This document shows positions 11,132 to 63,102 of a stretch of 64,000 nucleotides of DNA, in pieces; the first letter of the stretch is position 1, and each line of letters starts with the position of its first letter. The stretch comes from Candidatus Kerfeldbacteria bacterium (GTDB lineage: Bacteria; Patescibacteriota; Patescibacteriia; SBBC01), in the NCBI GenBank assembly GCA_016207275.1, contig JACQPY010000012.1, forward strand, positions 1,706-65,705, read 5' to 3'. Position numbers and translations under genes: made by a program. Below the pieces are notes generated by a model. It was not told the DNA's origin. It saw only the letters and a list, made by a program, of their open reading frames with translations, and searched no databases.

Positions 11132-14116
11132 ATGGAAAAGTACAACCACCGCGCGGTCGAAGCGAAGTGGCAGCAGCGTTGGGAAGAGGCGGGAGTGTTT
11201 GCGGCGAAGGACCTCACCCCCGCCCGCTCCGCCGTGCGGAGCATGGCGGGCGGGTCGGCCTCCAGCAGCTCCCACCCCCTCAGCGCTTCGCGCAGCTCCC
11301 CCTCAGGCAGGGGGAGCAACTCCGTGTACGTCCTCGACATGTTTCCCTACCCGTCGAGCGACGGATTGCATGTCGGACACCCCGAGGGTTACACGGCCAG
11401 TGACATTGTGGCGCGCTACATGCGGATGAACGGCAAGAACGTCCTGCACCCGATGGGCTGGGACGCATTCGGTTTGCCAGCGGAAAACGCGGCGATCAAG
11501 AAAGGCGTCCACCCGCGGATCGTGACTGAGCAGAACGTCAACAATTTCAAGCGGCAGATCAAGTCGCTGGGCTTTTCCTACGACTGGTCGCGCGAAGTCA
11601 ACACCACTGATCCTCGGTATTACAAGTGGACCCAGTGGATTTTTCTGCAGCTCTTCAAGATGGGCTTGGCTTACGAAGCCGAGGTGCCGATTTGGTGGTG
11701 TCCGAAAGACAAAACCGGACTGGCGAATGAGGAGGTGGTGAATGGTTGTTGTGAGCGGTGTGGAACGAAAGTGGAACGAAAAAAACTGCGTCAATGGTTA
11801 TTGCGAATCACGAAGTACGCCGATCGCTTGCTCGCCGGTTTGGAAAAACTCGATTGGCCCGAGTCAATTAAGGCCTTGCAGCGGAATTGGATTGGGAAGA
11901 GCGAGGGAGCGGAGGTGGTGTTTGAAGTAGGAAGTATGGAGTATGAAGTATGGGGTAAGGGAGGCGAAAGGGTTGCTGATACCATGCAGTTTGTTCCGGA
12001 GCTAGTGCCGTTGGTGCTCAACGGTTCGAAGTTCAAGACGTATCGCTTTTTTGAACCGAAAAATGTCCGTAAGGGTGATAGTGTTGAGTTTATTAATGCA
12101 TCCACAAAAGAGAGTTTTGCGATGGCGCGGATCACCAAGGTGGAAAAACGAAATTTCATCGACATTCCGCTGCACGACAAAGGCCATGAGCCAGATGTTT
12201 CCATTGAAGCGAGAAGGAAAAGGTACGAAGGGTACTATAAGAAAATAGTGAATAATGATACTCCGGTATGGATTTACTCGTTTATTTTGGAAAAAACGAA
12301 GGGAAAAGCGAGATTCCGGATCAAGTCCGGAATGACAGATAAGAAAAAGCATAGTGTGCCTGTCTTCACCACCCGTCCAGACACGTTGTTTGGCGCGACG
12401 TACCTCGTGCTCTCGCCGGAACATCCGCTCGTGGACATGATTACGAGCGAGAAACAGAAGAAGGCGGTGGAGAAATACAAGAAGGATGTCGCAAGCAAGA
12501 CGGACCTTGAACGTACTTCTCTGGAAAAGGAAAAAACTGGCGTGTTCACTGGCGCGTATGCGGTGAATCCGGTGAACAACGAGAAAATTCCAGTTTGGAT
12601 TGCCGATTACGTGTTGATGTCCTACGGCACCGGCGCGATTATGGCCGTGCCGGCGCATGATGAGCGGGATTATGAATTTGCCAAGAAGTTTAAGTTGCCG
12701 ATTTTGAAAGTAATCAAGCCGCCGTCGGTCATGCCGAAGAACCCCGTGGAAACCATCATCAGTCCTGGAGGGTGGGGACATCTCGGCAGCGAACTTGAGA
12801 GCGATTGCTGGACCGGCGAAGGAACGATGGTGAACTCAGGGAAGTTTGATGGCCTCTTGAGCGAAAAAGGGCGGAAGAAAATCATCGAGTGGCTCGAACA
12901 CGAAGGTAAAGGAAGATTTGCCGTCAACTACAAACTCCGCGACTGGGTGTTTTCACGGCAGCGTTATTGGGGCGAGCCGATTCCGCTGGTGCACTGTCCA
13001 AACCACGGCGTCGTGCCAGTGCCGGAAGATCAATTACCAGTGCTGTTACCGGACGTGGAGAAGTACGAGCCGACGGGGACTGGAAAGTCTCCTCTGGCAG
13101 GGATGAAGGAATGGGTGCAAACGCAATGCCCGCTGGGAGACGGTCCGGCAGAGCGCGAAACCAACACCATGCCGCAGTGGGCTGGTTCGTGCTGGTATTA
13201 CTTGCGCTACCTTGATCCGAAGAACGAGCAGGCGTTGGCCGATCCGGAAACAATGAAGCAGTGGCTGCCGGTTGATGTGTACGTCGGTGGGGCAGAGCAC
13301 GCCGTGCTGCATTTGCTGTACTCACGTTTCTGGCATATGGCGCTCTACGATGCTGGCGTACTTCCAAAGGACGTTGGCGATGAGCCTTTCATAAAATTGA
13401 AGAACCAAGGCCTCATCCTAGGTCCGGACGGCGAAAAAATGTCGAAGTCGCGCGGTAACGTCATCAACCCCGACCCATTGATAGCCAAGTTCGGAGCAGA
13501 CAGCTTCCGGATGTACGAAATGTTCATGGGGCCGTTTGAAGACGCCAAGCCGTGGAGCACGAACGGGATCGTGGGGGTGAGGAGGTTTTTGCAAAGAATC
13601 TGGAATATAGCGCATAGCGGTAGAGTTCAAAAAACAACACTTATAGAAGACCCGAATCTTCGTAGACGGCATATATATACAGCTTCCATTGAATATGGTA
13701 TCGATAGTTTCAAATTTAATACTTGTGTTAGTGAGTTAATGAAGTGGAGCAATAGTTGGGATGAACCAACAAAAGATGCGTACGTCGATAAAGACGAATT
13801 CGAAGTTTTCTTAAAGCTTCTTTCGCCCTTTGCTCCGCATATTTCAGAGGAGCTTTGGTCAAAGCTAGGACACGGAACATTGCTAGTGCAGGAGGAATGG
13901 CCAATATTCAATCGTGATTTAATAAGACCTAGCGAAGTCAGGATCGCAATTCAAGTCAACGGTAAATTGCGGGGAACAGTAACAATGCCAAGCGGTTCCG
14001 CAAAGCATGATGTGGAAGCGGCGGCCAAAGCCGAGCCGAATGTGGCGAAGTATTTGAACGGTAAGCCGAAGAAGGTAGTATATATAAAAGATCGTTTACT
14101 GAATTATGTAGTCTAA
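11132..14116 (+). CDS. leuS: Leucyl-tRNA synthetase carrying two in-frame insertions (low-complexity Ser/Arg-rich N-terminal insert; ~144-aa ASCH/PUA-like insert before the editing domain) and an AT-rich 3' portion
   Basis: 994 aa. YVLDMFPYPSSDGLHVGHPEGY (HIGH region), VFTTRPDTLFGATY editing domain, KMSKS as KMSKSRGN, C-terminal IQVNGKLRG. Bacterial LeuS is typically ~800-870 aa. Confidence 0.95.
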   Translation: MEKYNHRAVEAKWQQRWEEAGVFAAKDLTPARSAVRSMAGGSASSSSHPLSASRSSPSGRGSNSVYVLDMFPYPSSDGLHVGHPEGYTASDIVARYMRMNGKNVLHPMGWDAFGLPAENAAIKKGVHPRIVTEQNVNNFKRQIKSLGFSYDWSREVNTTDPRYYKWTQWIFLQLFKMGLAYEAEVPIWWCPKDKTGLANEEVVNGCCERCGTKVERKKLRQWLLRITKYADRLLAGLEKLDWPESIKALQRNWIGKSEGAEVVFEVGSMEYEVWGKGGERVADTMQFVPELVPLVLNGSKFKTYRFFEPKNVRKGDSVEFINASTKESFAMARITKVEKRNFIDIPLHDKGHEPDVSIEARRKRYEGYYKKIVNNDTPVWIYSFILEKTKGKARFRIKSGMTDKKKHSVPVFTTRPDTLFGATYLVLSPEHPLVDMITSEKQKKAVEKYKKDVASKTDLERTSLEKEKTGVFTGAYAVNPVNNEKIPVWIADYVLMSYGTGAIMAVPAHDERDYEFAKKFKLPILKVIKPPSVMPKNPVETIISPGGWGHLGSELESDCWTGEGTMVNSGKFDGLLSEKGRKKIIEWLEHEGKGRFAVNYKLRDWVFSRQRYWGEPIPLVHCPNHGVVPVPEDQLPVLLPDVEKYEPTGTGKSPLAGMKEWVQTQCPLGDGPAERETNTMPQWAGSCWYYLRYLDPKNEQALADPETMKQWLPVDVYVGGAEHAVLHLLYSRFWHMALYDAGVLPKDVGDEPFIKLKNQGLILGPDGEKMSKSRGNVINPDPLIAKFGADSFRMYEMFMGPFEDAKPWSTNGIVGVRRFLQRIWNIAHSGRVQKTTLIEDPNLRRRHIYTASIEYGIDSFKFNTCVSELMKWSNSWDEPTKDAYVDKDEFEVFLKLLSPFAPHISEELWSKLGHGTLLVQEEWPIFNRDLIRPSEVRIAIQVNGKLRGTVTMPSGSAKHDVEAAAKAEPNVAKYLNGKPKKVVYIKDRLLNYVV

Positions 14117-14161
14117 TTATTTACTCATCACTTATCAATTAATGGGCGATCCATATGAATC

Positions 14162-14725
14162 ATGAATAACGAAGGCGGCGAGTCAAAGTTTGCTGACTGG
14201 AAGGCGCCGGACGAAGAAGCCGAGCGAAAACCATTTGGCGAAGCAGACGAAGCCGAACAAATTGAACGTACCAAACATCTACGTGAAACTTTCAGCCGCG
14301 AGTCTTCTTTGGGTGAATTTTGGGGCAATGCATATAAGTATTCAGAAAAACTACCAATTTTAGGGAAAACTCCTGATGAGGCAAGAAAATTAATCGCCGA
14401 AGCCGCCAGCGGAGTGAAATTGATCGAACAGGCACTCGAAACATTCAAATCAATCAAATTGCGCGAAACGGGCCAAGAGAATTACTTGATCCTTGGCGTG
14501 AACGAACTACAAGAAACAAACAACTGGCAATCTTTTTTGCAGGCCGGGAAACTCGACGTGCCGAAACTCAAGGAACTTATCCGCTGGTTGCTCGAAAGCC
14601 ACCGCCTCAAAGGGGCTGAGTTGGGTCGGCCGAGTGAACTCAAGCCCTCTGATATTGAGGAAATCTTTGATGATATGGACTATGTCTTGAAAAAAGTGAA
14701 CGATTATCTGCCGAGCAAAAAATGA
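14162..14725 (+). CDS. Hypothetical protein in a low-GC island
   Basis: 187-aa acidic protein with no recognisable motifs. About 40% GC versus ~60% for the surrounding chromosome. Followed by a conserved ~45-nt 3' element. Confidence 0.5.
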   Translation: MNNEGGESKFADWKAPDEEAERKPFGEADEAEQIERTKHLRETFSRESSLGEFWGNAYKYSEKLPILGKTPDEARKLIAEAASGVKLIEQALETFKSIKLRETGQENYLILGVNELQETNNWQSFLQAGKLDVPKLKELIRWLLESHRLKGAELGRPSELKPSDIEEIFDDMDYVLKKVNDYLPSKK

Positions 14726-14763
14726 TTTTCATGAATGATCAGTTGATTAATTTTGTGGTGTAG
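14723..14763 (+). repeat. Conserved 3' element copy 1 (TGATTTTCATGAATGATCAGTTGATTAATTTTGTGGTGTAG)
   Basis: About 80% identical to copy 2 at 15552-15597. Starts at the stop codon of the preceding gene and ends 2 nt before the next ATG. Confidence 0.55.
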
Positions 14764-14765
14764 TT

Positions 14766-15554
14766 ATGGAGTACAAAGGCGAACTGCCACAGAATCCAGA
14801 CCAAAAAGACTCATCGGAACTTGAAGCCGAGCGTCAACGGATTCGCGAAGAAATCCAATTAGAGCTAGAACAGCTCCCCGATGATGAGTCTGGACGTGAG
14901 CGTCGTGAGTTCCTCACTCGAGAGCCAGCATTTTATGCTTATGGTGGAAAGAGTTTCGAAGGACGCCGTCAAACCCCAGGATTCAGAATATCCAGTGCCG
15001 ATGCAAGAATGGGGGTGCTGCAAGATGTTTACGGCCTAAGGAGAGACCATGTTACCTTTGGGGTCGGACGGGGCTGGAATAGAAAGTACATAATTCATCG
15101 TGAACTTCAAAATCCGGATTATCGCGGCGGGTACCCATACACCTTCCTCTTCGATCCCGGTGAAGAGACCTGGCGTCTGTATGGGCAGAATGGAGCTTTG
15201 CTGCTTAGAAACGTTCAGCGCGACACGGAGATTCATGAATGGTTTACTCTCAAACCAGAAAAGATGACCGAGGCGCGCATGCAAGAATACGTTGAACGCC
15301 TTAACCAAGCCGATCGATCGGTTGAACCTCAGTCAAATGCCAGCTTGGAACAATTTCTCAAGACTTCAGGCCATCAAACGGACGTTCAACGGGTTGGATC
15401 GCGAGAAATGGCAGAACCAAACGTCGAACAGATGGCCGCTGCCCTGGCCGCGATGCCCGAATCAGCACGGAGGGAGAGTACGTGGCTGATTGGTGGAGGC
15501 AGTCTTCATGGTGAAGAATTGGGGGCACGAATAGTGTGGGACCCGAGAAAGTGA
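14766..15554 (+). CDS. Hypothetical protein in a low-GC island
   Basis: 262 aa, no recognisable motifs. Followed by copy 2 of the 3' element. Confidence 0.5.
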   Translation: MEYKGELPQNPDQKDSSELEAERQRIREEIQLELEQLPDDESGRERREFLTREPAFYAYGGKSFEGRRQTPGFRISSADARMGVLQDVYGLRRDHVTFGVGRGWNRKYIIHRELQNPDYRGGYPYTFLFDPGEETWRLYGQNGALLLRNVQRDTEIHEWFTLKPEKMTEARMQEYVERLNQADRSVEPQSNASLEQFLKTSGHQTDVQRVGSREMAEPNVEQMAAALAAMPESARRESTWLIGGGSLHGEELGARIVWDPRK

Positions 15555-18498: not shown

Positions 18499-19209
18499 AT
18501 GGAGCAGCGATTTTCTTCAGAAACTGAACGTCAGCCTGGAGCACCAGATTCAGGTGAATCATTGGAACGCGCGGCTCAACGAAAACGGTTGTTCACCGTC
18601 CTGGCCGCCATCGGTGGGGCGGCCTTAGTACTGGGCGTGGTCGGTTTAGTCAACACGATTACCTCGCCGTTTCCGCGTCCGACCGTGCCGAACACGAACG
18701 GTCAGGAGCGGGTGCTCGAGGAACTGAAGCAACAGGACACGGACGGCGATGGCCTGAAGGACTACGACGAGGTTTTCACGTACCGGACTAGCGCTTTTGT
18801 CCGCGACAGCGACAGCGACGGTTTGTCTGATGGCGACGAAGTGGCGGCGCGAGCCGATCCGAACTGTCCGCCGGGCCAGTCGTGCGGCGCGGTGGCCGTG
18901 ACTAACGTCAACATCAACGGCGTGATCAGCAATCCGACGGCCAGCGCCCTGCGTAAAGCGTTAAAGCAGGCGGGCGCGCCGGCCTACATTATTGACCAGA
19001 CCGACGACCAGACGTTGCTCGAGCAGTACCGTGGCGTCCTGGTCGGCACCAATGCCAACGTCAGCCTTAAGCAAAGCGATTTGACGAACCTTTCAGCGGC
19101 CCAGATTAGGGAGTTGCTCAGATCGAACGGCGTGGCCGACGACGCGTCGCTGGCCCAGATTGATGACGAAACCTTGATTGCCATCTATCAAGATGCCTTG
19201 TCGAATTAA
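18499..19209 (+). CDS. Membrane-anchored protein with thrombospondin type-3-like Ca-binding repeats
   Basis: 236 aa. TM LFTVLAAIGGAALVLGVVGLV. DTDGDGLKDYDE and DSDSDGLSDGDE (DxDxDGxxDxxE) motifs. Confidence 0.55.
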   Translation: MEQRFSSETERQPGAPDSGESLERAAQRKRLFTVLAAIGGAALVLGVVGLVNTITSPFPRPTVPNTNGQERVLEELKQQDTDGDGLKDYDEVFTYRTSAFVRDSDSDGLSDGDEVAARADPNCPPGQSCGAVAVTNVNINGVISNPTASALRKALKQAGAPAYIIDQTDDQTLLEQYRGVLVGTNANVSLKQSDLTNLSAAQIRELLRSNGVADDASLAQIDDETLIAIYQDALSN

Positions 19210-22200
19210 TGCCCGCTGTGAACGTTTATCGAAAAAAGCTGGCGACTAAACCGGGAACTGAGTTGAGCGTCTCTGACGGTCGGGCTTCACGCTCTCCGAC
19301 ACGGCGAACGCTGCCGTACTTCGCCGTACCGTTCGCCACGGTCGTGGTGATTGGCAGCTTGCTGTTGCTGCCGCGCGCCGTGCCAGTTAAAGCTTTCTTC
19401 CCTCCCTTTCTTAATATTGGTCAGGAACTTTCCACGGTAGTCGGGGTTGGTGTTCCGGTTACCGAAACCGGCAGCATTCCCCAGGCCAAGACCAATATCG
19501 TCAATCGGATCCGCGAGCGCCTTAAAGATCTGCTCAAGGTCGCCGGCGACGTCGCCTACAAAACGGGCGTCCGAATTTTCTACCAGCAGCTGACCAACGT
19601 CACCACCGAGTTTATTCGCACCGCCGGCACCGGCCAAAAACCAATTTTCATCACTGATCCGCACTACTGGGAAAAGGTTTTTGACGCCGCCCAGAACGAC
19701 TTTCTCGACTCGGTCGGCAAGCAAGTGTTTGGTATTGAGCTGAGCCGACCGCTCGATGCCGAGAAGGAAAAGCAGATTGGCTTGCTGGTGCGAGGCATTC
19801 TTAACCCCGGCACGGTCTGCGAGGACGACTGCCAGAAGCGGTACAACGAGAAGCAGGTTAGGATTAAAGAAATCCAACAAGACCTCGGCATCGTCAAGCG
19901 CATGGAACCGGATCCGAACGTCGATCCGAACTGTCCGAAGTGCATTCCCTGCCCGATTGCCGGCGACCCGAACAAGAACCCGGCCTGGGATTCAAAAGGT
20001 CAGCAGTTCATTGATAAAAAGAAATGTCAGGCCGTGCTCGGCGACATCCTGTCGATCGAACGCGCTCAAGTGACCAGGGACTACACCAACTGTACGAACT
20101 CATGCCGGCGGCAACGCGGGGCCGTCCGGACCGACCCGATCCTGAAAGAAGTCGTCGGCAACGAAGCCGTCGCCGCCGCGGTCCAGGAGTACTACGATCC
20201 GCGAAAGAACGACTTCGGCAACATCCTGGCGGTTCTCAACAAGGCGGCTGACCGAAGTCAGAGCGCCGTCCGCGCTGAACAGACTGCTTTCGGGACAAAC
20301 ATCGCGCCGAGCCGAACGACCGCCGGCATCATCACGGCCCCGGCCGTGTTGGTGGAAGAACGTGCCAAGAAGGCGCTTCAAACGGCGACCAACGACGTTG
20401 ACATCGTCACCGGCTCGCGAATTGCCGACGTGATCAGCAAGGCGATCGGCAACGCCTTGATCCAACGGATCACTCGCGAGTGGTTTAATCGCAAGTGCGG
20501 CTTAAACCCGGACGCCTGCCGTCAGCCGGTCGGCACGTCGCCACAAGCGAGGTTCTTGTTTGGCAACCAACCGGCCCAGCTGGCCGCCGACATCAAACCT
20601 GTCCAGATTGGTCGTAATGATATTGTCCTGGGCGAGCCGTCGCGGAATCCCGTGCCGACCGCGGACATCCTGGAAGCGAGTGGTTTGATCGATTCGCGAT
20701 TTCGACAGGCCATTGAACAGCGACTGACAGTTCGCGAAGCACTCGACCAGGGCTTTCTCGACGCGACTCGGACCTTTGGGTATGACCGGGAAGGTAAGGA
20801 GCCGCTCGATGGCTACCCCTACCAGAGCATTTTGTACTTGAAAAAGTCGCGAATCGTGCCGGTCGGTTGGCAACTAGTAGCCGAATACATCCGTCAAGCT
20901 GAACCTCAGGACACCAGCCTTGGTGAGCTGATTAACCAATTCTCGATGTGCGGTCAGGATGCTGCGCATGACGCTGATCCAGCAGCCACCAAAGCCTGCT
21001 CAAATAATCGAACGCAAGTTTGTGCGGCTGACAGAGACTGTACGCCGACGCCGGGCGGAACGTGTCTCTCGACGACGAGTACGTGTGTTGGTGGTCCGCA
21101 GCCGGGCGCGGCTTGTACGTCTGACGTTGACTGTGCGTTTCCTGCTCCGACGTGTATGGAAACCTACTCACCGAGTCCATTCTGCGGCTTAGTCGATCCA
21201 GACTGGGTCTTGAAAGCGCCACTGACCTACTGCCGTAAGCAAGGTGCCGGCGAAGAATTAGTGACCAGGATTTTCCTGTGCGACGAAGATACCAACGCCA
21301 ACGGCCGGATTGACTGCAGCGAGGGTGTCGGCGGCGGCGACATCGGCCATTTTGAAATTCAACGCAAAGACGAGGTCTGTGTCGATGAGCCGACCTGCGT
21401 GGCCGAGAATGAAGACGGTTCGTGCTTGTCGTATGGGTACTGCTTCCAGGATCGTCGCACGTTCAGGTTCGACGGCGACCGCTGTCCCTCGTACTACGCC
21501 TCGTGTCAGGCCTACGCCGATCCGGATGGCAACAGCGTGTCCTTTCTCAAAAAGACGATCGACGTCAATGGCTGCTCGTCGGACAGTGCCGGTTGCAGCG
21601 CTTTCTGCAGCGACCGGCGCGACAAGGACGGCAGTTGGCTGTGCACGTCCGATCCTGGCCGCGATCCGGCCGTGGCCGCCGCGGCGACCAAGTGTCCGGT
21701 CGGCGAAACCTGCACGTGTCGATTGCCGAGCGGTGAGACCTGCACGGTCGGCAACGGCACAGATAATTGCACCACTAATTCTGGCGCCCGCTGTACGCTG
21801 GGCGCGAACTACAGCTACTTCGACCGCGACGTTGAAGTCTGCAGTGAAACCGACGCCGGTTGCCGGGAATTCATTGACGCGAATGGCTCTGCGAACCTGC
21901 TCGCCAACGGCGGCTTCGAGCTCTTCGAGGGTACGGCTGATGACAGCGGCGCGGCCGCCGACGACGTGGTCAAAGGCTGGGGCGGCGTGACGGCATTTAT
22001 CAGTACCTCGCATGCCCAAGTCGTGACGTCGGACCTGGGGGTGACGAACAATAACAAGTCGGCTGTCCGCCTGCCGGCCACGGGCGGCTCGACGCAGGGG
22101 CTGGTTTTCACCAACGACCGGCCGTCGAATACGCCGGCCCGGCAAGGTATTGATACCGGGCGGCCGCTCAGCTTCCGGACGTTTACCTTGTCGTACTACG

Positions 22201-24959
22201 GTCGGGCAGAAAATCCTGGCACCTCGTGCAGCGGCGCCTACGGACTACGGGCGGCCAACTCCTCATATGTAACCAGTGACAACGCCGTCTACACGCCAAC
22301 CTGGACGCGATTCTCGACCGTCATCACCTGGCCTGATCGCGGGTACGACAACAACCCAGACAACCACGTGGTTCAGGCCTTCGTCGAGGCTTCGTCGGAT
22401 TGCAACGTGCTGATTGATAACGTTCAGTTGGAAGCGGCCGACCAGGTAAGTGCCTACGCCGACTACGGGACGGCCAACCTCATCTACCTCAATGCTGATC
22501 GCCGGACCTGCGACCGGGTCGACGTCGGCTGTGAGAAGTACACGCCTGTGACCGGCGGCGGCGAGGCGATCACCGGCGTAGTCAATACGAAAGACCGCTG
22601 CTCGGCTGAGGTGGTTGGCTGCAAGCAGTACCGGAAAGAAGCGATCGATCACATACCCTTCCGAGCGGCAGTTGACCCGCTTAACCTCGTGCCGACGTCA
22701 GCCCGACAGTGCCGGGCCGACCAGGTCGGCTGCGAAGAGTACACCAACCTCGACGTCTTGGCCCAAGGCGGCGAAGCGCGGGAGTTTTTTACGGCCATCC
22801 GCCAGTGCGTCAAACCGGTGACCGGCGCGGCCGACCAGGCGACCTACTTTACTTGGGTCGGTGATGACCGGACTGGCTTCCAGCTCAAGTCGTTCCGCTT
22901 GAAGCAGTCCAACGTCGACGGCGGTCCTTGCACGAACATCGCCTTGGGCACCTCAACCAGTGACAACAACCCAGCCTGCGTCGATGCGGGTGGGGCCAAC
23001 TCGAACATCGCCCAGTGCGATCCGGCCGACGTCGGCGTTAATCCGGACTGCGCGCAGTACTTTGATAGCAGCGGCAATGTTTTCCACCGCCGGCAGAGCC
23101 GAACCGTTCCAGTCAGCGACGATTGCCATCCCTACCGTAATACCATTGATGAACGCAATAACCAGTCGAACGTGTACCTGGTGCTGGCCAGAGAGAGCAC
23201 CACCTGCGCCGCCGAAGCCGCCGAGTGTCGCGCGTTTACCGGCAACGCTGGCAGTAACACTCGGGTGATAGTCAGTTATAATTTTGAGAACTCCAACGCG
23301 GTCTCGGCCGACTGGCAATACGTCGGCGCCGGTTCGAACGTCAGTCCCAGCCCGGCCAGCGTCTCGGCCGGCGGCAAGTCGATGAGCGCGACCGGCACCG
23401 TCGCCACCCAAGACCACGTTCTCCAAGACAAGCTGCAGCAGAACAAGAGCTACACACTGTCGTTCTGGGCCAGTCCGGATTCGGCCACGACGCTCGATGC
23501 CTACCTGCTGATTAACGGCACCGTCACGCGTCCGATCGTCACCAGCCTTAACCTGGCGTCGGAGTGGCACCCGTACACCGTTGGTCCGGTAACGGTCGAC
23601 GTTGATCCGCAGGGTGTGCCGGTCCAGCTGCGACTGACCCTCCGCGACGGCAGTGGCAACCCGGCCACCGCCTACCTTGACAACCTCCAACTGCGCGAGA
23701 TCACCGACAGTCTATTCCTGATTGATAATTCCTTCCGGACTTGCGCTGATGCCGATCTCGGCTGCGAAGCCTACGTTGACCGGGCCAATGCCCGACACAA
23801 CCTTAAGAGCTTTACCCGTTTGTGCAGCCCCGACGTGCTTGGTTGCAGCGCCCTGATCGACACCCAGAATTCGTCGAGTCCCTTCCTCAGCCTGCCTTTG
23901 CGCGGCGTCCAGGTGCCGGCCGACGCGACCGTGAGCTTGGTCAACGAAAAAAATGCCCAGTGCTCGGCTGACGCGAAAGGCTGTACGGCGTTTGGTCAGC
24001 CGACGCTCAACGTCAGCAAGCGGGTGGGCGCATTCCAGACGGTTTACCTCAAGGATCAACCAGACAAGCACCTGCAGATTCTCTGTACCGCCAATGAACT
24101 GTCGTGCACCGAGTACACGGCCGACAGCGGCAGCAAAGAGTACTTTAAGAATCCCGGCGCGCAGACCTGCGAATTCAAACGGTTGACCGGTGACACCGGC
24201 TACCATTGGTACATCACGGGGACGACGTTCCGCTGCCCGGTGAATACGCCGCCGACCGATGGCCTGCCGACCGGCCGGGCTTGCGTCAAGACCTGCACGG
24301 GCGGCGAACGAGGCGGCTTGGCCTGCGTCAGTAACAACGATTGTCTAGAAGCAGTCGGCATCTGCAGCAGCGGCATTTGCCAGGGCGGCGGCGCCAATGA
24401 CGGGACCAGTTGCTCAGCTAACAGCGACTGCCTGGAAACCGCGAGCTGCACCGGCGACGATGCCGTAGTCGGACGAACCTGTCGGATCAACGCTGATTGC
24501 GGCGGCGGCCTGACCTGCGACAGTTGGGTTGGCAGCTGCCCGGAAGAACAAAGCGGCTGCAACGAGTATCGTGATCCCTCGGATCCAAAGTCCTGTCGGA
24601 CTAACTGCCCGCTGGAACTGTCCGGCGGCAAGCCGCTGTACGTCGATGATTCGTGTCAGCCGACGGTATGCCGCGGCGGAAAGAAGGACGGCGATTCCTG
24701 CCGTGATAACTCCGACTGTCCCGGCGTCTGCTCGAATGCCGCCCTGGCCTGCACCTCGTCGTCACAGTGTCCAAGCGGCGGGACGTGTTCGACCGCGACC
24801 TGTTCGGGCGAGGGAATTCCCGGCTGCCGTTCGTACTACTACTTAAAGCAAACGATCGAGCAGAATGCGGCCGAATGCAATGGTCGCGTTGACATTGCTA
24901 ACGGCTGCCGACCGTTCAACGACACGTCGAACCAGACCCTTAACTTCCGAGCGTTCTAA
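19209..24959 (+). CDS. Giant (1916 aa) secreted/membrane-anchored cysteine-rich surface protein with repeated C-x-[AST]-[DN]-x-D-C-x(3-6)-C modules
   Basis: N-terminal TM (YFAVPFATVVVIGSLLLL). Dozens of Cys in repeated disulfide-type motifs (CVSNNDCLEAVGIC, CSANSDCLETASC, CRINADCGGGLTC, CRDNSDCPGVC, CAADRDCTPTPGGTC). Start is adjacent to the upstream stop. Confidence 0.7.
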   Translation: MPAVNVYRKKLATKPGTELSVSDGRASRSPTRRTLPYFAVPFATVVVIGSLLLLPRAVPVKAFFPPFLNIGQELSTVVGVGVPVTETGSIPQAKTNIVNRIRERLKDLLKVAGDVAYKTGVRIFYQQLTNVTTEFIRTAGTGQKPIFITDPHYWEKVFDAAQNDFLDSVGKQVFGIELSRPLDAEKEKQIGLLVRGILNPGTVCEDDCQKRYNEKQVRIKEIQQDLGIVKRMEPDPNVDPNCPKCIPCPIAGDPNKNPAWDSKGQQFIDKKKCQAVLGDILSIERAQVTRDYTNCTNSCRRQRGAVRTDPILKEVVGNEAVAAAVQEYYDPRKNDFGNILAVLNKAADRSQSAVRAEQTAFGTNIAPSRTTAGIITAPAVLVEERAKKALQTATNDVDIVTGSRIADVISKAIGNALIQRITREWFNRKCGLNPDACRQPVGTSPQARFLFGNQPAQLAADIKPVQIGRNDIVLGEPSRNPVPTADILEASGLIDSRFRQAIEQRLTVREALDQGFLDATRTFGYDREGKEPLDGYPYQSILYLKKSRIVPVGWQLVAEYIRQAEPQDTSLGELINQFSMCGQDAAHDADPAATKACSNNRTQVCAADRDCTPTPGGTCLSTTSTCVGGPQPGAACTSDVDCAFPAPTCMETYSPSPFCGLVDPDWVLKAPLTYCRKQGAGEELVTRIFLCDEDTNANGRIDCSEGVGGGDIGHFEIQRKDEVCVDEPTCVAENEDGSCLSYGYCFQDRRTFRFDGDRCPSYYASCQAYADPDGNSVSFLKKTIDVNGCSSDSAGCSAFCSDRRDKDGSWLCTSDPGRDPAVAAAATKCPVGETCTCRLPSGETCTVGNGTDNCTTNSGARCTLGANYSYFDRDVEVCSETDAGCREFIDANGSANLLANGGFELFEGTADDSGAAADDVVKGWGGVTAFISTSHAQVVTSDLGVTNNNKSAVRLPATGGSTQGLVFTNDRPSNTPARQGIDTGRPLSFRTFTLSYYGRAENPGTSCSGAYGLRAANSSYVTSDNAVYTPTWTRFSTVITWPDRGYDNNPDNHVVQAFVEASSDCNVLIDNVQLEAADQVSAYADYGTANLIYLNADRRTCDRVDVGCEKYTPVTGGGEAITGVVNTKDRCSAEVVGCKQYRKEAIDHIPFRAAVDPLNLVPTSARQCRADQVGCEEYTNLDVLAQGGEAREFFTAIRQCVKPVTGAADQATYFTWVGDDRTGFQLKSFRLKQSNVDGGPCTNIALGTSTSDNNPACVDAGGANSNIAQCDPADVGVNPDCAQYFDSSGNVFHRRQSRTVPVSDDCHPYRNTIDERNNQSNVYLVLARESTTCAAEAAECRAFTGNAGSNTRVIVSYNFENSNAVSADWQYVGAGSNVSPSPASVSAGGKSMSATGTVATQDHVLQDKLQQNKSYTLSFWASPDSATTLDAYLLINGTVTRPIVTSLNLASEWHPYTVGPVTVDVDPQGVPVQLRLTLRDGSGNPATAYLDNLQLREITDSLFLIDNSFRTCADADLGCEAYVDRANARHNLKSFTRLCSPDVLGCSALIDTQNSSSPFLSLPLRGVQVPADATVSLVNEKNAQCSADAKGCTAFGQPTLNVSKRVGAFQTVYLKDQPDKHLQILCTANELSCTEYTADSGSKEYFKNPGAQTCEFKRLTGDTGYHWYITGTTFRCPVNTPPTDGLPTGRACVKTCTGGERGGLACVSNNDCLEAVGICSSGICQGGGANDGTSCSANSDCLETASCTGDDAVVGRTCRINADCGGGLTCDSWVGSCPEEQSGCNEYRDPSDPKSCRTNCPLELSGGKPLYVDDSCQPTVCRGGKKDGDSCRDNSDCPGVCSNAALACTSSSQCPSGGTCSTATCSGEGIPGCRSYYYLKQTIEQNAAECNGRVDIANGCRPFNDTSNQTLNFRAF

Positions 24960-24961
24960 CT

Positions 24962-27900
24962 ATGGGCCGCCGGTCAACCTATCTCTGTCTTGCCTCAGTC
25001 GCCGCCCTGTCGACCGCGATGGTGCTGCTGTGGTCGACCTCCGCTCGGGCTTTGACGATTACGCCCATGCCGCCGACGGCGACCCAAGTCTCGCCAACGC
25101 AGGAGACGATTACCTGGCAGACTGACGCGACGACCACCTCCGACCAGGTCCAGTACGGATTGAGCTACAGCCTGCAGTGGACCGCCAAGCAGCTGAGCAT
25201 TAGCGGCTCGCCGCGAAATGAAACAGTGGTCGGGGTTAAGGCGGTCAACGCGCAGCGCGCATTCGTTGCAACTGCCCCGACCGGCGGGACGTCGGTGCTG
25301 TACGAAACCACAAACGGCGGAACCAGCTGGACCGAGCGGTGGTCGTACACACTCGAATCGCCGGGAGCGCTCGAAGTCGACGTGCCGGCTAACCGAGTGT
25401 ACGTCGGCACGGCCAATGGATTCGTCCATGTTTTGACGTTAAGCGGTAGCTCGGTGGCGCAGTGCGACACGCAGCTGGGCATTACCGATATGGCCCTGGC
25501 CAACAGAAAGTTGTGGGTAGTGGGGCTCGGAACGACCACGGTCAAAGAAGTTGATCCGGCCAGCTGCGCCGTCGTTAACCACGCCGTCAACCTCAGCGCG
25601 GTTGATCCGTCGGCGACCTACCTGACTGACATCGCCGCGATAACTATCGGTGGTACCACGACGCTGTGGGTGACGAGCAACGACGTATCGATCGCCACCT
25701 CGACCAACAGCGGTTCAACCTGGAGTACGGCCGTGCTCGGCACGCCTGGCTCGCCGCTGGGCTTCGAGGACATCGGGGCGGTTTCGAACGCTCGCGCCTA
25801 CGCGGTCGGCCGGAACGGCGGCATCTACCTGTACAGCGGCGGAACGTGGAGCGTCGCGCCGACGACAACCAGCCTTGACTTTTTGAGCCTCGGCGTGGGC
25901 AGCGACAGCAAGATTTTCGCCTTCGGCTGCTGCACCGGTGGGTTCGATTACTACTCGTTTAGCGGCGACGGCAGCAGCTGGTCGTCATTGGTGACGATGG
26001 CGACCAGCACCAATGCGCTGGCCGCTTCATTTGTTACGCCCAACGTCGGATGGCTGGGCGGTTTTTCCGGCCGGCTGGCGTTGCACAGCGTCGCTTACCC
26101 GAGCAGCACGCCGGCCAGCAACGGGACGAACCACACGGCTACGGTGAGCGGTCTGCAGGAGGCGACCTACTACCACGCCAGTGCTATTTCGAATACCTCG
26201 ACCCAAACCGCCGAGTCAGGTAACTTCGCGTTCAAAACGCAGGAACTAACCATTACTGATCCGCTCGGTCCGACGGCCACCACCACCTCGTCGAGTGCGA
26301 CAATTACCTGGAACACGCCGAATCAGGCGAGTTTGGCGGCGGATTCGAGAATATACTTATCGGCCAATCCTGGTTGGCAGTCAACTTCGATTAGCGGGTC
26401 GTCTCTAAGAGGAATCAGCGCCGTTGGTGACGGCGCTTACTTAGTTGGCCAAACCAGTAACGCCATTTTTAGAGCCAACGGCCTTGCCCCCAACCCCCCG
26501 TTGAGTTTAATAGCTCCACCCGGCAGAGCAGAAGGAATTGTGATGGTTGGTAATCGCGGGTGGGCGGTCGGACAGAACTTTATCATGCGGACGAATGACG
26601 CCGGAGCAATTCACGACGGAACGTCATGGGTGAGCCAATCGAATGGCGTTCCCTCCAGCACGTATTTCACCAACGTGACCGCTATTGACGATCAACACGC
26701 TTGGGTAGTCGGCGATAATATTATCCTCCGAACCACTGACGGAGGAAGTAATTGGAACACCGTCCTTGCTCCGCTCCGGGTCTTGTATGATACCGCAGTC
26801 GTTGACGCCCTGACGTTGGTGGCGGCCGGTGATAATGGTTATATTCACCGTAGTACCGATAGCGGGGCAACCTGGACGCAGCTTCCAAGAACATTGCCTG
26901 ACGCTGCCGTTTTTGGGTTGAGTTTTGCCAGCGCAACTGCGGGGTGGGCGGCTGGGTTTGGCGGAGTAATTGGTCAGAGTATCGATGGAGGAAAAACATG
27001 GTCGGAACCATTCAACGCTACCTCCTGTGGATTTAATACAACCACGTTCTACGATGTCGCCGCGATTTCCCCGAACGACGTGTGGTTCGTCGGAAGTGGC
27101 GGAAAAGTACTCCATTGGACTGGCGCCGGTTCGTGCCCCCAGACTGTTTTAATTGGTACCGCCACAAATTTGCGAAGCGTCGATGTTGATGGAGCGAATG
27201 TCTGGATAACTGGGGAAAATGGATTAGTCGCGCGGTACGGAGTCGATACAGCCAGCTCCAGCTATCGTTCACTCACTGATGCTTCGCTAACCCGGGCTCA
27301 TTCTTTGACCGTTAATGTTCCACCCCTTACCCCCAACACCACCTACAACTATTTTGTCCAATCCTACGACGCGGCCGGCTACACCGCCGTCAGTCCATTA
27401 AAAACATTTACTACCCAGGCCGTTCCGCAGCTTCAGGTAACACCGTCAAGCCTAAGCTTTACCGCGACGCAGGGACAAAATCCGGCGCCGCAGACCTTCC
27501 TCGTCAAAGACCAGAACAACGGCAACATCGGCGGGTGGAATCTAAGTTCAACCACCGCCTGGTTATCGTCCCCCGGCGCGGTCACACCGACCAGCGGGCC
27601 GGGCACGCCGTCCGATACGGTCAGCGTCACCCCGAACGTGGCCGGTCTTACGGTTGGGACGTACACTGGCACGGTCACCGTCAACGCCACTGATCCAGGC
27701 GTCGATCCGACCTCGACGCCGAAGACGGTTAACGTCTCATTGACGATCACGCCGCCGCCCAAGCTGACGGTATCGAGCACCTCGTTGTCGTTTACCGCCC
27801 AAGAGAACGGCTCGGCGCCCGGCCTCCAGACAGTGGACGTGACTAATGGCGGGGGCGGAACACTGACCTACACTACCGACACCGGCGGTACGACCTGGCT

Positions 27901-30118
27901 CAGCGCCACGCCGAACGTGCCGCCCGACGGCGCCAACCGGTACGCGACGCCGAGTAAAGTTAACGTGGCACCGACCACGACGGCCTTGGCGCCGGGCACC
28001 TACAACGCCACCATCACCCTTGACGGCGGCCCGGGTGTGGACAGCTCGCCGCAGCCGATCGCAGTAACCTACGTCATTACCGCCGCGCCGCGCTTACAAC
28101 TGACGCCCGGACCAAACCCGACTTTGGCGTTCACCGCCACCCAGTCGTCGGGAACCGACCCGGCGCCGCAGGACGTGGTCGTGCAGAACGCCGGCGGCGG
28201 GGCGATCACCTGGACGGCGACGAACCCGGTCAGCTGGATTACGTTGACTAATTCAAGTGACGGCAACGGGCCGACGACGATGCGGATTCAAGTGCGTAAT
28301 GTCCTGGCCGCCGGCGACTACACCGCCGCCATCACCGTCACCGCCACGACCGGCGGCGGGTCAGTCGTCGACAGCCCGCAAACCATTGCCGTCCAGTTCC
28401 ACGTTGACCCGGCGCCGGTGCTGTCGGTCAGCAAGTCCAGCCTGACGTTCACCACCACGCAGGGTACGAACCCGCCGGAACAAACGTTCATCGTTCAGAG
28501 CGGCGCGCCGGCCGGCTGGAGCGGCACGACCAGCGTCACGCCGCCCTTAAACTGGCTGTCGATCACGCCGACCACCGGCACCAACTACAATGACCCGAAT
28601 GATCCGGTGCACGTCCGGGTTGACGTCGCTGGCTTGGCCGTCGGTACCTACGCCGGCACGATCACCATCAGTTCGTCCGGCGCCGTGCCTTCCTCGATGA
28701 CCATCAATGTGACCTTGAACGTCACGGCGCCGCCAGTGCTCGACGTTAATCCGCGTTCGATCACGGTGACCACCGATGAGGGCACGACCGCCACGACTCA
28801 GCTTGGAATCTTCAACAACGGCGGGGCGGGCACGACCATGAACTGGGATATGGCCCAGCCGGCCGCCACCTGGGTTCGTTTATCGTTGACCGCCAGCTGC
28901 GCTGGTCCGTTCGGACCGATCAGCGGCGCGTTGGTCGGCGGACAGTCGGTCGTGGTCACGGTCTGTATCGACACGGTCAATCCGACGCTGTTGACGCCGG
29001 CGGCGTATGCTTCGACGCTGACCATCAACGCGCCGGGCGCGCAACCGGCGGCTGCCGGCGTCAACAACGTCCCGGTGACGCTGAACGTTCTGGCCGACAC
29101 CACCGGTCCGACGGTCGTCGCTGGCAGTATCATCATCGACGCCGACGGCGTGTGCGTCGGCGGCGGTCCGCCGTACTACTTCGGCCGAATCAAGTGGCAA
29201 ACCAGCGAACCAGCCGACTCGCGCGTCGAGTGGGGTGAGCAATTAGTGAGCGGAGTTCCGCCGTATGAACTCGGCTCACTGGTGAGGCCGGAGGGTCTCG
29301 ATACCGCGGCCCACACAGGCGGGGTGGTTGATCACGAGGTCATACTCGATAACTTAAACGGCATTGTCGGCGGCCACACCTACTACGTTCGGTTAACTTC
29401 AATGGATCGGTACCGCAATGTTAGTCCCTGGACCGACCACTTTGAGGTCCCACGCAGCAACGAATTCTTGAGCTTCACCGTGCCGAATGCCTGCGATACT
29501 ACGCCGCCGACCAACGTGATTCTGACCGTGCCGCCGGGCACCCTGTCGGGAACGGTCAACGTCAACCTCAGCGCCGAAGACCAGTCGCGGATTGATCGCT
29601 TTGAAATCTATGAGGGGTTAACGCCCGGTCGTTCGGTGGTGGCCACGGTAGCCGTTCCGGCCGCCGCCTGCTTCTCGACCGGACCGACCTTCAGCTGCAG
29701 CGTCACCTACGCGCTTGATACACGCCTGCTGCCTGACGGTCAGGCCCAACTGTACGCCCGGGCCTTCGACCTGGCCGGGAACTCGGCCGATTCGCCCAAC
29801 GTGGCGATTACCGTGAACAATGCCGTGCCGCGGGTGTCGAACGTCAAGGCCGTCCCGTCAGTACTGGCTAACGGCCTGTGGCAGGCGCTCGTTACCTGGG
29901 ACACTGATCTGCCGTCGAACTCGCTGGTGGACTACGGCATGGAAGACGACGACGGCAACTTCAACGGCTACACCGATCAGCAAAGTCCTGATGACAGCGG
30001 TCGGAACGACCTGATCGCCGGTCATCAAGTGACCCTGACCAATTTGCCGGCCGGCCACATCTTCCACTACCGCGTGACCTCCTGCTCATCGGCTAACCCG
30101 ACCTTGTGCGGAAACTAA
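24962..30118 (+). CDS. Giant (1718 aa) secreted protein: signal peptide, BNR/Asp-box beta-propeller region, then multiple Ig-like/BACON-like beta-sandwich repeats
   Basis: Signal peptide MGRRSTYLCLASVAALSTAMVLLWSTSARA. At least five S-x-D-x-G-x-T-W Asp-boxes (TTNGGTSW, STNSGSTW, TTDGGSNW, STDSGATW, SIDGGKTW). Repeated ~90-aa units with an L-x-V-S-x-S-S-L-S-F-T...W-L-S...G-T-Y-T-G-T-V-T-V pattern. Confidence 0.7.
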   Translation: MGRRSTYLCLASVAALSTAMVLLWSTSARALTITPMPPTATQVSPTQETITWQTDATTTSDQVQYGLSYSLQWTAKQLSISGSPRNETVVGVKAVNAQRAFVATAPTGGTSVLYETTNGGTSWTERWSYTLESPGALEVDVPANRVYVGTANGFVHVLTLSGSSVAQCDTQLGITDMALANRKLWVVGLGTTTVKEVDPASCAVVNHAVNLSAVDPSATYLTDIAAITIGGTTTLWVTSNDVSIATSTNSGSTWSTAVLGTPGSPLGFEDIGAVSNARAYAVGRNGGIYLYSGGTWSVAPTTTSLDFLSLGVGSDSKIFAFGCCTGGFDYYSFSGDGSSWSSLVTMATSTNALAASFVTPNVGWLGGFSGRLALHSVAYPSSTPASNGTNHTATVSGLQEATYYHASAISNTSTQTAESGNFAFKTQELTITDPLGPTATTTSSSATITWNTPNQASLAADSRIYLSANPGWQSTSISGSSLRGISAVGDGAYLVGQTSNAIFRANGLAPNPPLSLIAPPGRAEGIVMVGNRGWAVGQNFIMRTNDAGAIHDGTSWVSQSNGVPSSTYFTNVTAIDDQHAWVVGDNIILRTTDGGSNWNTVLAPLRVLYDTAVVDALTLVAAGDNGYIHRSTDSGATWTQLPRTLPDAAVFGLSFASATAGWAAGFGGVIGQSIDGGKTWSEPFNATSCGFNTTTFYDVAAISPNDVWFVGSGGKVLHWTGAGSCPQTVLIGTATNLRSVDVDGANVWITGENGLVARYGVDTASSSYRSLTDASLTRAHSLTVNVPPLTPNTTYNYFVQSYDAAGYTAVSPLKTFTTQAVPQLQVTPSSLSFTATQGQNPAPQTFLVKDQNNGNIGGWNLSSTTAWLSSPGAVTPTSGPGTPSDTVSVTPNVAGLTVGTYTGTVTVNATDPGVDPTSTPKTVNVSLTITPPPKLTVSSTSLSFTAQENGSAPGLQTVDVTNGGGGTLTYTTDTGGTTWLSATPNVPPDGANRYATPSKVNVAPTTTALAPGTYNATITLDGGPGVDSSPQPIAVTYVITAAPRLQLTPGPNPTLAFTATQSSGTDPAPQDVVVQNAGGGAITWTATNPVSWITLTNSSDGNGPTTMRIQVRNVLAAGDYTAAITVTATTGGGSVVDSPQTIAVQFHVDPAPVLSVSKSSLTFTTTQGTNPPEQTFIVQSGAPAGWSGTTSVTPPLNWLSITPTTGTNYNDPNDPVHVRVDVAGLAVGTYAGTITISSSGAVPSSMTINVTLNVTAPPVLDVNPRSITVTTDEGTTATTQLGIFNNGGAGTTMNWDMAQPAATWVRLSLTASCAGPFGPISGALVGGQSVVVTVCIDTVNPTLLTPAAYASTLTINAPGAQPAAAGVNNVPVTLNVLADTTGPTVVAGSIIIDADGVCVGGGPPYYFGRIKWQTSEPADSRVEWGEQLVSGVPPYELGSLVRPEGLDTAAHTGGVVDHEVILDNLNGIVGGHTYYVRLTSMDRYRNVSPWTDHFEVPRSNEFLSFTVPNACDTTPPTNVILTVPPGTLSGTVNVNLSAEDQSRIDRFEIYEGLTPGRSVVATVAVPAAACFSTGPTFSCSVTYALDTRLLPDGQAQLYARAFDLAGNSADSPNVAITVNNAVPRVSNVKAVPSVLANGLWQALVTWDTDLPSNSLVDYGMEDDDGNFNGYTDQQSPDDSGRNDLIAGHQVTLTNLPAGHIFHYRVTSCSSANPTLCGN

Positions 30119-30122
30119 TCGT

Positions 30123-34763: not shown

Positions 34764-34767
34764 GGCC

Positions 34768-45564: not shown

Positions 45565-45640
45565 TCCCGTTAGAAAGCCTTTCGCTACAACGAGAAATAG
45601 TCGACTCTTATGAAACAACACAGGCTGACTTTCTAACGGG

Positions 45641-46183: not shown

Positions 46184-46189
46184 CGTCGC

Positions 46190-48381: not shown

Positions 48382-48396
48382 TCCTGCCCCTTCACC

Positions 48397-49635: not shown

Positions 49636-49636
49636 C

Positions 49637-62228: not shown

Positions 62229-62325
62229 GGTTTATCATTCCTATTTTTTACCTGCTGACCGCCGAATTGTTCTCGCCGGGCAGATAAAATTTTACCTATA
62301 ACATCTAAGGTGAATCCAGATAAAT

Positions 62326-62985: not shown

Positions 62986-63102
62986 GGGGTAGATTGGAGA
63001 ATTTTTAGCAGTGAATTTCTAAACTAACACCCGCAACCGCCCTTTGGATCATCACCATAAATCTGGTCCATAATTCGTTCCTGACTCACCTTTTTAAGGC
63101 CT

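Follow-up and report, generated by a model that had tools for sequence, protein, structure and literature searches.

A predicted YqfB-type ASCH domain nested in the editing domain of a Kerfeldbacteria leucyl-tRNA synthetase and its probable arrival on a recombination tract

Bacterial aminoacyl-tRNA synthetases are usually seen as architecturally frozen. In the leuS gene of a Candidatus Kerfeldbacteria bacterium, one of the ultrasmall Patescibacteria (CPR), which encodes leucyl-tRNA synthetase (LeuRS), an in-frame insert interrupts the CP1 editing domain, and this locus raises the question of what the inserted segment is, where it came from and what it does inside an essential enzyme. The gene lies on a 64,000-nucleotide stretch of contig JACQPY010000012.1 (assembly GCA_016207275.1), which we call the window and to which all positions refer unless another locus is named. 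An initial annotation, made from the letters alone, had described a GC-poor ASCH/PUA-like RNA-binding domain grafted into LeuS by a mobile segment. In this regard, we consider it likely that a YqfB-type ASCH domain from a stand-alone family is nested in the tip of the CP1 hairpin, that a recombination tract of ~1 kb brought it there, and that the product is a likely bifunctional LeuRS.

The insert and its ASCH core

The host protein matched the TIGR00396 model (leuS_bact) at equivalog level in two stretches, with 1030.6 bits against a cut-off of 548.4, and Pfam recognized the tRNA-synt_1, editing (PF13603) and Anticodon_1 domains. It is 100% identical to the database entry 'leucine--tRNA ligase [Candidatus Kerfeldbacteria bacterium]', here called P0001 (P and L numbers denote proteins and loci). 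By direct reading, an insert of 142 amino acids (aa 267-408, 11930-12355) separates the strand SEGAEVVFEV from the strand VPVFTTRPDT, and the coordinates given initially (11923-12355) were essentially right, being seven bases off. Pairwise alignment to the insert-free P0016 (800 aa) gave a single insertion of 138 aa (aa 269-406), and the PF13603 and TIGR00396 matches both break in two exactly at the insertion point. The spacing from NWIG.S to TTRPDT is 155 aa in the window LeuS versus 17-25 aa in most of the 120 closest LeuRS. Sequence anchors, pairwise alignment and split profile matches therefore agree that the insert sits in frame where the editing domain is entered, as first annotated. Going by established LeuRS structures, the insertion point is presumably the basal hairpin of the CP1 editing domain. 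The same insert stands at the same place in P0002 (1296 aa), whose syntenic locus L001 has an M23 peptidase upstream and Sua5 downstream. The features of the host gene and of the insert are as follows.

11132-14116, + strand: leuS, bacterial-type leucyl-tRNA synthetase, 994 aa, host of the insert (open reading frame and profile matches)
11369-11380, + strand: HVGH, the HIGH motif (direct reading)
11885-11929, + strand: host strand NWIGKSEGAEVVFEV, with which the basal beta-hairpin of the CP1 editing domain begins, 5' of the insertion point (conserved in all relatives)
11930-11971, + strand: N-terminal linker GSMEYEVWGKGGER, 14 aa, low-confidence and probably flexible (AlphaFold2 pLDDT <50, query residues 1-15 and 17-19)
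11972-12295, + strand: predicted ASCH core, aa 281-388 (Pfam, AlphaFold2, Foldseek, end-to-end alignment with 107-aa stand-alone proteins)
12023-12046, + strand: ASCH octapeptide G-S-K-F-K-T-Y-R of the 'GKTR' YqfB type, aa 298-305 (alignment to E. coli YqfB)
12182-12190, + strand: G-H-E motif, aa 351-353, candidate acid/His pair of the active site (near-invariant in both homologue alignments)
12296-12355, + strand: C-terminal linker TKGKARFRIKSGMTDKKKHS, 20 aa, basic, low-confidence and poorly conserved (AlphaFold2 pLDDT <50, query residues 131-147)
12356-12940, + strand: CP1 editing domain, restarting at VPVFTTRPDT directly after the insert (best PF13603 stretch aa 403-589, model positions 17-185)
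12368-12385, + strand: TTRPDT editing motif (direct reading)
12626-12670, + strand: GTGAIMAVPAHDERD editing motif (direct reading)
13436-13450, + strand: KMSKS (direct reading)

The Pfam ASCH family (PF04266) matched aa 285-385 with 28.7 bits in the full LeuS and with 32.9 bits (E 1.1e-7) on the insert alone, the curated gathering cut-off being 21.2 bits. The AlphaFold2 model of the insert, built on 79 sequences, showed a core with a predicted local distance difference test score (pLDDT) of 80-94 (query residues 20-130), and its first ~19 and last 17 residues were disordered. Searched with Foldseek against the PDB, it matched seven or more ASCH structures with E values between 5e-6 and 1e-3, and the 22 best matches were ASCH-type proteins or small uncharacterised proteins with the same fold. 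These matches included EF3133 (1t62), YqfB (9kyf/9kyh, TM 0.80 on target), 3s9x, ZmASCH (5gus), PH0355 (2z0t), TTHA0113 (2dp9) and 3iuw. The ASCH assignment, for which a fold prediction had been asked at the outset, was thus borne out by Pfam above its cut-off, by the modelled core and by the ASCH structures matched, and it far exceeds what chance would give. As modelled, the core of the insert is an ASCH domain with a PUA-like beta-barrel fold, and it probably folds independently of LeuRS.

The insert evidently stems, judging from its homologues, from a stand-alone ASCH family of ~107 aa that is very common in Patescibacteria. An exhaustive phmmer search with the insert against 1.84 billion protein representatives returned 237 homologues at E<=1e-3, mostly free proteins of 106-115 aa with 35-42% identity, and a profile search added 3022 further matches named 'ASCH domain-containing protein' from Levyibacteriota, Niyogibacteria, Berkelbacteria, WWE3 and other Patescibacteria. 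The stand-alone Patescibacteria proteins are 35-46% identical to the insert over their whole length. Since the alignment takes in everything between their first residue and their last strand, the protein of an entire gene appears to have been captured. These relatives are free genes (as at loci L003 and L004; examples are P0274 of Levyibacteriota, P0301 of Niyogibacteria and P0315 of Berkelbacteria), and some members of the family are fused to S51 peptidase (P0126), methyltransferase (P0168) or NYN (P0231) domains. At L004 (3004-3953), judged by eye and by analogy with P0126, the 107-aa ASCH gene overlaps the start of an S51-peptidase-like open reading frame (ORF) by 4 nt.

Copies of the P0002, P0121 and P0157 type match PF04266 or align with the insert. 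Within the stand-alone family, the copies embedded at this site form a loose clade, in which three group together in 32/50 bootstraps and the fourth joins them together with two free proteins, and they share derived features such as (R/F)-x-EPK and PVWIY/FVIY. A word-indexed homology search with the insert alone and a phmmer search of the insert against PDB sequences found no match. A scan of GTDB genomes with the embedded-ASCH alignment, whose patterns were too degenerate, returned one archaeal stand-alone homologue only. Two metagenome scans gave nothing in one case and only stand-alone 107-aa genes in the other, and because they added no embedded copy, only four protein clusters document how far the embedded form is spread taxonomically.

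The initially noted pattern L-x-G-x-K-x-x-x-x-R is present as LNGSKFKTYR, and GSKFKTYR is in register with GRKTITIR of YqfB, K300, T303 and R305 of the insert corresponding to K21, T24 and R26. In alignments A1 and A2, of 36 and 79 homologues, the Lys and Thr are invariant, and the Arg is invariant in A2 and nearly so in A1. The GHE motif and one Tyr, the latter in the region corresponding to YqfB Tyr89, are near-invariant in both alignments, and all of these residues (octapeptide K/T/R, GHE, Tyr) are kept in 4/4 LeuRS-embedded copies. YqfB is an N4-acetylcytidine (ac4C) amidohydrolase in which Lys21, Thr24 and Arg26 are essential, their mutation inactivating the enzyme, while Glu74, His70 and Tyr89 contribute (PMC6972931). 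The ASCH subtypes include a Thr type ('GKTR') and a Glu type ('GKER'), and 19/19 ASCH proteins tested removed ac4C from tRNA (bioRxiv 10.64898/2026.02.27.708502).

Because the catalytic residues are conserved, the insert looks like an enzyme and not like a mere RNA-binding module. Of the RNA-binding domain proposed initially, the ASCH/PUA-like fold stood, and the role of a mere binding module became less likely, the YqfB-type K/T/R, GHE and Tyr being kept. To judge from the motifs, the catalytic and editing parts of LeuRS are intact in the window protein. Since HIGH, KMSKS and the editing motifs are untouched, the product would most likely be a bifunctional protein, namely a working LeuRS with a tethered small hydrolase, and we infer that LeuRS activity is retained. 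The chemistry of the insert would most likely be N4-acylcytidine hydrolysis (ac4C to cytidine), and its substrate would be either the free nucleoside for salvage or cytidine in RNA. Patescibacteria depend on the salvage of scavenged nucleotides. Salvage of the free nucleoside would fit the abundance of the free family and the company of the nucleotide 'house-cleaning' cargos found in related LeuRS.

The two linkers show further traits at the DNA level. An imperfect 21-nt tandem duplication (11916-11936 / 11937-11957, 76% identity), encoding VFEVGSM / EYEVWGK, lengthened the N-terminal linker by 7 aa, which are missing from P0002. The C-terminal linker has another sequence in P0002 and is nearly missing in P0121 and P0157. 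The GGGGTAAGGGAGG tract annotated at the 5' junction exists (11952-11964); it overlaps the second duplication copy by 6 nt and is not conserved in L001. Within it, the Shine-Dalgarno-like AAGGGAGG (11957-11964) stands 7-10 nt before the codon that aligns with the start of the stand-alone proteins and is likewise not conserved in L001; the idea that GGGGTAAGGGAGG is a fossil ribosome-binding site of a captured gene was unsupported, as the tract is not conserved there. A perfect 8-bp hairpin, TTCCGGA-TCAAG-TCCGGAA (12313-12333), lies in the DNA of the C-terminal linker and is absent from L001; with no T-run on the + strand, it was rejected as a fossil terminator. Independent transcription of the insert was also rejected, there being no promoter-like site on the + strand inside leuS.

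Mosaic ancestry of leuS and constraint on the insert

The window LeuS is of mosaic ancestry. In its conserved core it is 77% identical to P0003 and 73-74% identical to P0004-P0006, all insert-free, and 67% identical to the insert-bearing P0002. In the N-core (aa 60-261) and the C1 segment (aa 601-810), P0001 is sister to P0003 (bootstrap 89/100 and 70/100), and P0002 ranks only 117th and 116th of 119. In the editing domain (aa 407-600), each of P0001 and P0002 is the best match of the other, at 82%, and P0001 and P0003 were sisters in 0/100 bootstraps. The maximum chi-square method delimited one segment:

11898-12855, + strand: recombination tract with the ASCH insert and most of the editing domain, P0002-like inside a P0003-like gene (maximum chi-square)

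Inside this tract 141/179 informative sites favour P0002, versus 212/547 outside (chi2 86.4; reached by 0/200 permutations). Nucleotide identity over 11912-12889 is 72-86% to the P0002 gene and, outside one universally conserved block, 38-66% to the P0003 gene; over the rest of leuS, up to ~13.6 kb, it is mostly 70-88% to the P0003 gene and 54-75% to the P0002 gene. The identity to the P0003 gene drops near the 5' edge of the tract and at the 5' end of leuS. Nonsynonymous divergence (dN) between the window gene and P0003 is 0.067 in the N-core, versus 0.253 for P0002; in the tract (editing domain) it is 0.26 for P0003 versus 0.077 for P0002, and synonymous divergence (dS) flips likewise. Since ancestry flips between segments, the ASCH insert appears to have arrived with the editing domain on a tract of ~1 kb. 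Exchanges of this kind may be frequent. One assembly (GCA_040960375.1) contains both P0002 and P0003, and therefore insert-bearing and insert-free lineages co-occur.

We propose that the tract at 11898-12855 stems from a LeuS allele of the P0002 clade, a neighbouring lineage, and that homologous recombination brought it in; this genome would thus have acquired the domain by allele recombination and not by a fresh insertion. The 'mobile segment' of the initial annotation holds in the sense of this ~1-kb tract, which has other ancestry than the rest of the gene, and fails in the sense of an autonomous element.

In a codon-level comparison with the P0002/L001 copy, the ASCH core has 79% amino-acid identity, a dN of 0.11 and a proportion of synonymous differences (pS) of 0.79, which is saturated. 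This constraint is as tight as that on the editing domain (dN 0.10), and dN/dS between LeuS and P0002 is 0.09-0.19. Because dN is low with synonymous sites saturated, the insert is translated and constrained, and the ASCH core is under purifying selection.

The GC content of the insert is 43.2%, in the lowest 1.2% of 433-nt windows across the 64-kb stretch (mean 57.4%, standard deviation 5.4). This windowed check upheld the annotated drop in GC with a smaller contrast, the flanks having 55.2% (11332-11914) and 52.6% (12356-12940) and not ~60%. The 3' end of leuS and the two ORFs downstream are equally GC-poor. GC at third codon positions (GC3) of the insert is low in both genomes, at 50% in the window (11930-12355) and 45% in L001 (6760-7161), versus 73% and 85% in the N-core.

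Other parts of leuS vary as well. Between the N-terminal helix of LeuS and the HIGH strand, a low-complexity loop of ~36 aa rich in Ser/Ala/Gly/Pro (11216-11323, GC 67-73%) has unrelated sequence of similar length in P0002 and P0003, and the insert-free P0016 has none at this spot. In the region 13559-15554, the last ~180 leuS codons diverge strongly from both close relatives (dN 0.37-0.39) and are GC-poor (37-47%). The gap between leuS and a Sua5/TsaC-like gene holds two ORFs of 187 and 262 aa without Pfam matches, a variable region beside leuS. The 187-aa ORF showed no similarity to the small ORFs beside leuS in L001 and L006, a comparison that did not include the 262-aa ORF.

Nested domains in related LeuRS and competing explanations

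About half of the 120 closest LeuRS carry large inserts, and these sit at four hot spots:

Site A: the loop that holds the window insert
Site B: the last third of the editing domain
Site C: the exit of the editing domain
Site D: the loop after RQRYWGEPIP

Cargo families were assigned by all-against-all clustering, Pfam and fold prediction. Alpha/beta-hydrolase cargo of the Ser_hydrolase type (PF06821) occurs at all four sites, sometimes twice per protein, NUDIX cargo (PF00293) at site B and Ham1-like cargo (PF01725) at site A. ASCH at site A is present in 2/120 (P0001 and P0002), and it is the only cargo of the window LeuS. Two distant LeuRS have it too, P0121 (with the longer cluster member P0392) and P0157, with 53% and 46% core identity to P0001, and the architecture recurs in independent assemblies: L001 (GCA_040960375.1), P0121 (ENA) and P0157 (JGI). 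Going by these sequences, the window case is not isolated, with the site-A loop bearing ASCH in at least three other LeuRS lineages. At site D, a domain of ~130 aa in 29/120 proteins reads as a second ASCH, of the GKER type, with the motif G-x-K-T-x-E-T-R. An hhalign comparison with the ASCH family gave a probability of 90% (E 1.6e-6), PF04266 matched 9/19 members, and the AlphaFold2 model (pLDDT 91.8) matched PH0355, YqfB and ZmASCH in Foldseek. P0002 has both the site-A and the site-D ASCH.

Insert states are patchy on the LeuRS tree, and sister sequences often differ. The alpha/beta-hydrolase cargos cluster by site and not by host, which suggests that the cargo of each site is an old lineage repeatedly lost or exchanged. 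Recent hopping of this cargo within a gene was rejected, because copies cluster by site and cross-site identity is only 22-41%. A genome-wide habit of domain nesting was rejected too, within the scope of the other large window genes assignable to known families, whose PNPase, ComM-like, RecG, transketolase and type IV secretion system (T4SS) proteins have ordinary architecture. These data also speak against a normal, lineage-specific LeuS subdomain of host-like composition, the ordinary explanation entertained at the outset: the loop has 17-25 aa in most relatives with ASCH in 2/120, the GC content of the insert is 12 points below the upstream flank, and its homology is to free-standing proteins.

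Given an apparently catalytic ASCH in this position, one explanation is that it acts in cis on LeuRS-bound tRNA(Leu), either removing an N4-acyl group or sensing and gripping a cytidine, for example C74/C75 of the CCA end, and would thereby tie charging to a modification eraser or to a quality check. LeuRS has taken up ASCH on at least two independent occasions, in two subtypes (GKTR at site A, GKER at site D), which would suit this idea. ASCH proteins deacetylate tRNA ac4C, some of them needing an added nucleic-acid-binding domain for tight tRNA binding, and eukaryotic ac4C12 occurs in tRNA-Leu and tRNA-Ser (bioRxiv 10.64898/2026.02.27.708502); moreover, the insert enters at the neck of the editing domain, and this neck moves together with the 3' end of the tRNA (PMC4138327). 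However, the same LeuRS family also nests NUDIX, Ham1 and alpha/beta-hydrolase domains, which favours a generic permissive host over an ASCH-specific logic, and neither a tRNA gene nor an acetyltransferase lies within the 64-kb window. Counting further against action in cis, to our knowledge neither an acylated cytidine such as ac4C nor an ac4C writer has been described for the tRNA-Leu of bacteria, these organisms included. We therefore regard it as unlikely both that the domain works in cis and that it links erasure or checking to charging. It is similarly doubtful, in our view, that Kerfeldbacteria-like LeuRS is a dedicated scaffold that repeatedly nests small hydrolases (two ASCH subtypes, NUDIX, Ham1/ITPase and alpha/beta-hydrolase) in four loops surrounding the editing domain, these acting on what LeuRS holds, with alleles shuffled within communities through recombination. 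If it were, the nested enzymes could strip N4-acyl groups from tRNA-Leu or break down nucleotide and adenylate analogues that are aberrant or toxic, and LeuRS would be a novel type of machine with several activities, serving tRNA quality control or self-protection, instead of a set of neutral fusions.

The RNA-binding domain of the initial annotation would correspond to a non-catalytic, PUA-like add-on that raises the affinity or specificity of LeuRS for tRNA. ASCH domains do belong among the PUA-like beta-barrels, some of them bind nucleic acids, the fold list includes the TRIP4 ASCH-DNA complex (9kyl) and ZmASCH, and the C-terminal linker is basic (KGKARFRIKSGMTDKKKH). Yet every embedded copy keeps the YqfB catalytic residues, which plain binding would not need, YqfB itself served as a nucleic-acid non-binding carrier in tRNA-binding assays, and the ASCH catalytic domain of an archaeal homologue, taken on its own, had undetectable tRNA binding (both bioRxiv 10.64898/2026.02.27.708502), and we hold this add-on to be quite improbable. 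Less credible still is that the insert is functionless for the cell, either as a chimera of the assembly or as a selfish mobile element, be it intein-like, a homing cassette, an intron or what remains of a transposon. Its patchy presence, lacking in the nearest backbone relatives P0003-P0006 and found in the distant P0121 and P0157, its low GC and GC3 and its movement on a recombination tract are what such an element might show, but the amino-acid sequence is under strong purifying selection and the identical in-frame architecture recurs in independent assemblies, so that a selfish element or artefact is essentially excluded. As first annotated, the insert is not an intein: there was no Hint or intein Pfam match (E<=1), it starts Gly-Ser-Met and ends Lys-His-Ser followed by Val, without a Cys/Ser/Thr first residue or a His-Asn end, and the ASCH fold covers the whole structured part. 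The Pfam scan of LeuS showed no endonuclease domain, and a search for terminal inverted repeats or a target-site duplication at the insert gave only chance-level short repeats. A 13-nt pair (11994/12314) was discarded as a target-site duplication, since it matches at 11/13 positions and an estimated ~2-3 such pairs are expected by chance per 700 nt. An intron or structured RNA was discarded as well, with no Rfam match in the window and a continuous reading frame.

Several observations weigh against the reading that we prefer, of a captured, constrained ASCH enzyme delivered by allele recombination. NCBIfam has no model naming the insert. The GHE motif lies in the loop corresponding to the H70/E74 loop of YqfB, and E353 is not placed exactly on E74. 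As for the tract, the sister pairing of P0001 and P0002 in the editing domain has only 53/100 bootstraps, and the editing domain of the whole clade is without the K1/K2 structure that the gene shows elsewhere; because this domain shows little phylogenetic structure, the donor is identified only roughly. A dS of ~1 within the tract means that the transfer is old, and GC3 has stayed low despite saturated synonymous divergence, which a single old transfer does not explain.

Comparison with known systems helps to place this architecture. E. coli YqfB and the YqfB-type amidohydrolases (PDB 9KYF/9KYH; PMC6972931, PMC9599836) resemble the insert in fold, in G-x-K-x-x-T-x-R, in the conserved Tyr and in a size of ~100 aa. 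In contrast, identity in the structural alignment is 15%, the acid of the insert probably comes from GHE and not from H70...E74, and YqfB is a free protein, whereas the insert is nested in LeuRS and is known here from sequence and model. The stand-alone Patescibacteria ASCH proteins have the same invariant residues; they are free genes, whereas the embedded copies have derived features. The CP1 editing domain, itself set into the Rossmann fold of class Ia synthetases (PMC13114784, PMC4138327), is likewise a hydrolytic domain nested in-frame on two strands or linkers, but it is universal and ancient in LeuRS, IleRS and ValRS, while the ASCH insert is lineage-restricted, patchy, of another fold and inside CP1. 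In a survey of 213 domain-insertion cases, the LeuRS editing domain was never a host (PMC13114784). The NCBIfam model NF040702, ileS_w_GNAT ('isoleucine--tRNA ligase, N-acetyltransferase domain-containing'), also describes a bacterial class Ia synthetase with an extra small-molecule enzyme domain, and synthetase-enzyme chimeras are therefore already known; compared by model name, it differs in being IleRS and not LeuRS and in carrying an acetyl-transferring GNAT in place of a presumed deacylase. Inteins in essential proteins are similar as in-frame, patchy inserts at a conserved site that spread between alleles by recombination, but the present insert is without Hint fold, splice-junction residues or homing endonuclease and consists of a conserved enzyme domain that evidently stays in the mature protein. 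The other domains nested in Patescibacteria LeuRS (NUDIX, Ham1, alpha/beta-hydrolase and GKER ASCH) share the host family, the same or neighbouring loops and the patchy distribution, and all are small hydrolases; the NUDIX, Ham1 and alpha/beta-hydrolase folds are different, and ASCH at site A is rare.

Other features of the window and meaning of the finding

Elsewhere in the window, four consecutive giant ORFs (19209-38424; 1916, 1718, 1546 and 1218 aa) with CBM_4_9, BACON_2, BNR-like, fn3 and purple-acid-phosphatase N-terminal domains presumably encode large surface proteins. A type IV secretion-like cluster (43663-51169) comprises a TraG/VirB4-like P-loop ATPase, two T4SS_pilin proteins, one of them also with an SLT lytic transglycosylase, and unannotated ORFs. 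A second GC-poor stretch (~43-50%) lies at the window end (61900-63300). No tRNA gene, tmRNA gene or Rfam family at the gathering threshold was found in the 64 kb.

Public databases already contain the proteins themselves, and automatic Pfam annotation flags their ASCH domain. We found no description of the LeuRS::ASCH architecture or of the hot-spot pattern in the open-access full-text literature, and the habit of LeuRS to collect small hydrolase domains is apparently undescribed. ASCH proteins have recently been proposed as tRNA ac4C erasers and ac4C salvage enzymes, and the preprint on tRNA erasers (bioRxiv 10.64898/2026.02.27.708502) says nothing of fusions with synthetases. In the present case, an essential class Ia enzyme bears a foreign and, as predicted, apparently active hydrolase inside its editing domain, and with this natural covalent chimera of ASCH and synthetase one could test directly whether such erasers are directed to particular tRNAs. 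The four hot spots, the at least five cargo families, their patchiness and the segmental recombination between co-occurring lineages amount to a natural experiment on how domain insertions originate and spread and on which loops of LeuRS tolerate cargo. Protein engineering may profit from this pattern, as may the understanding of how ultrasmall bacteria that depend on salvage economize on their genomes.

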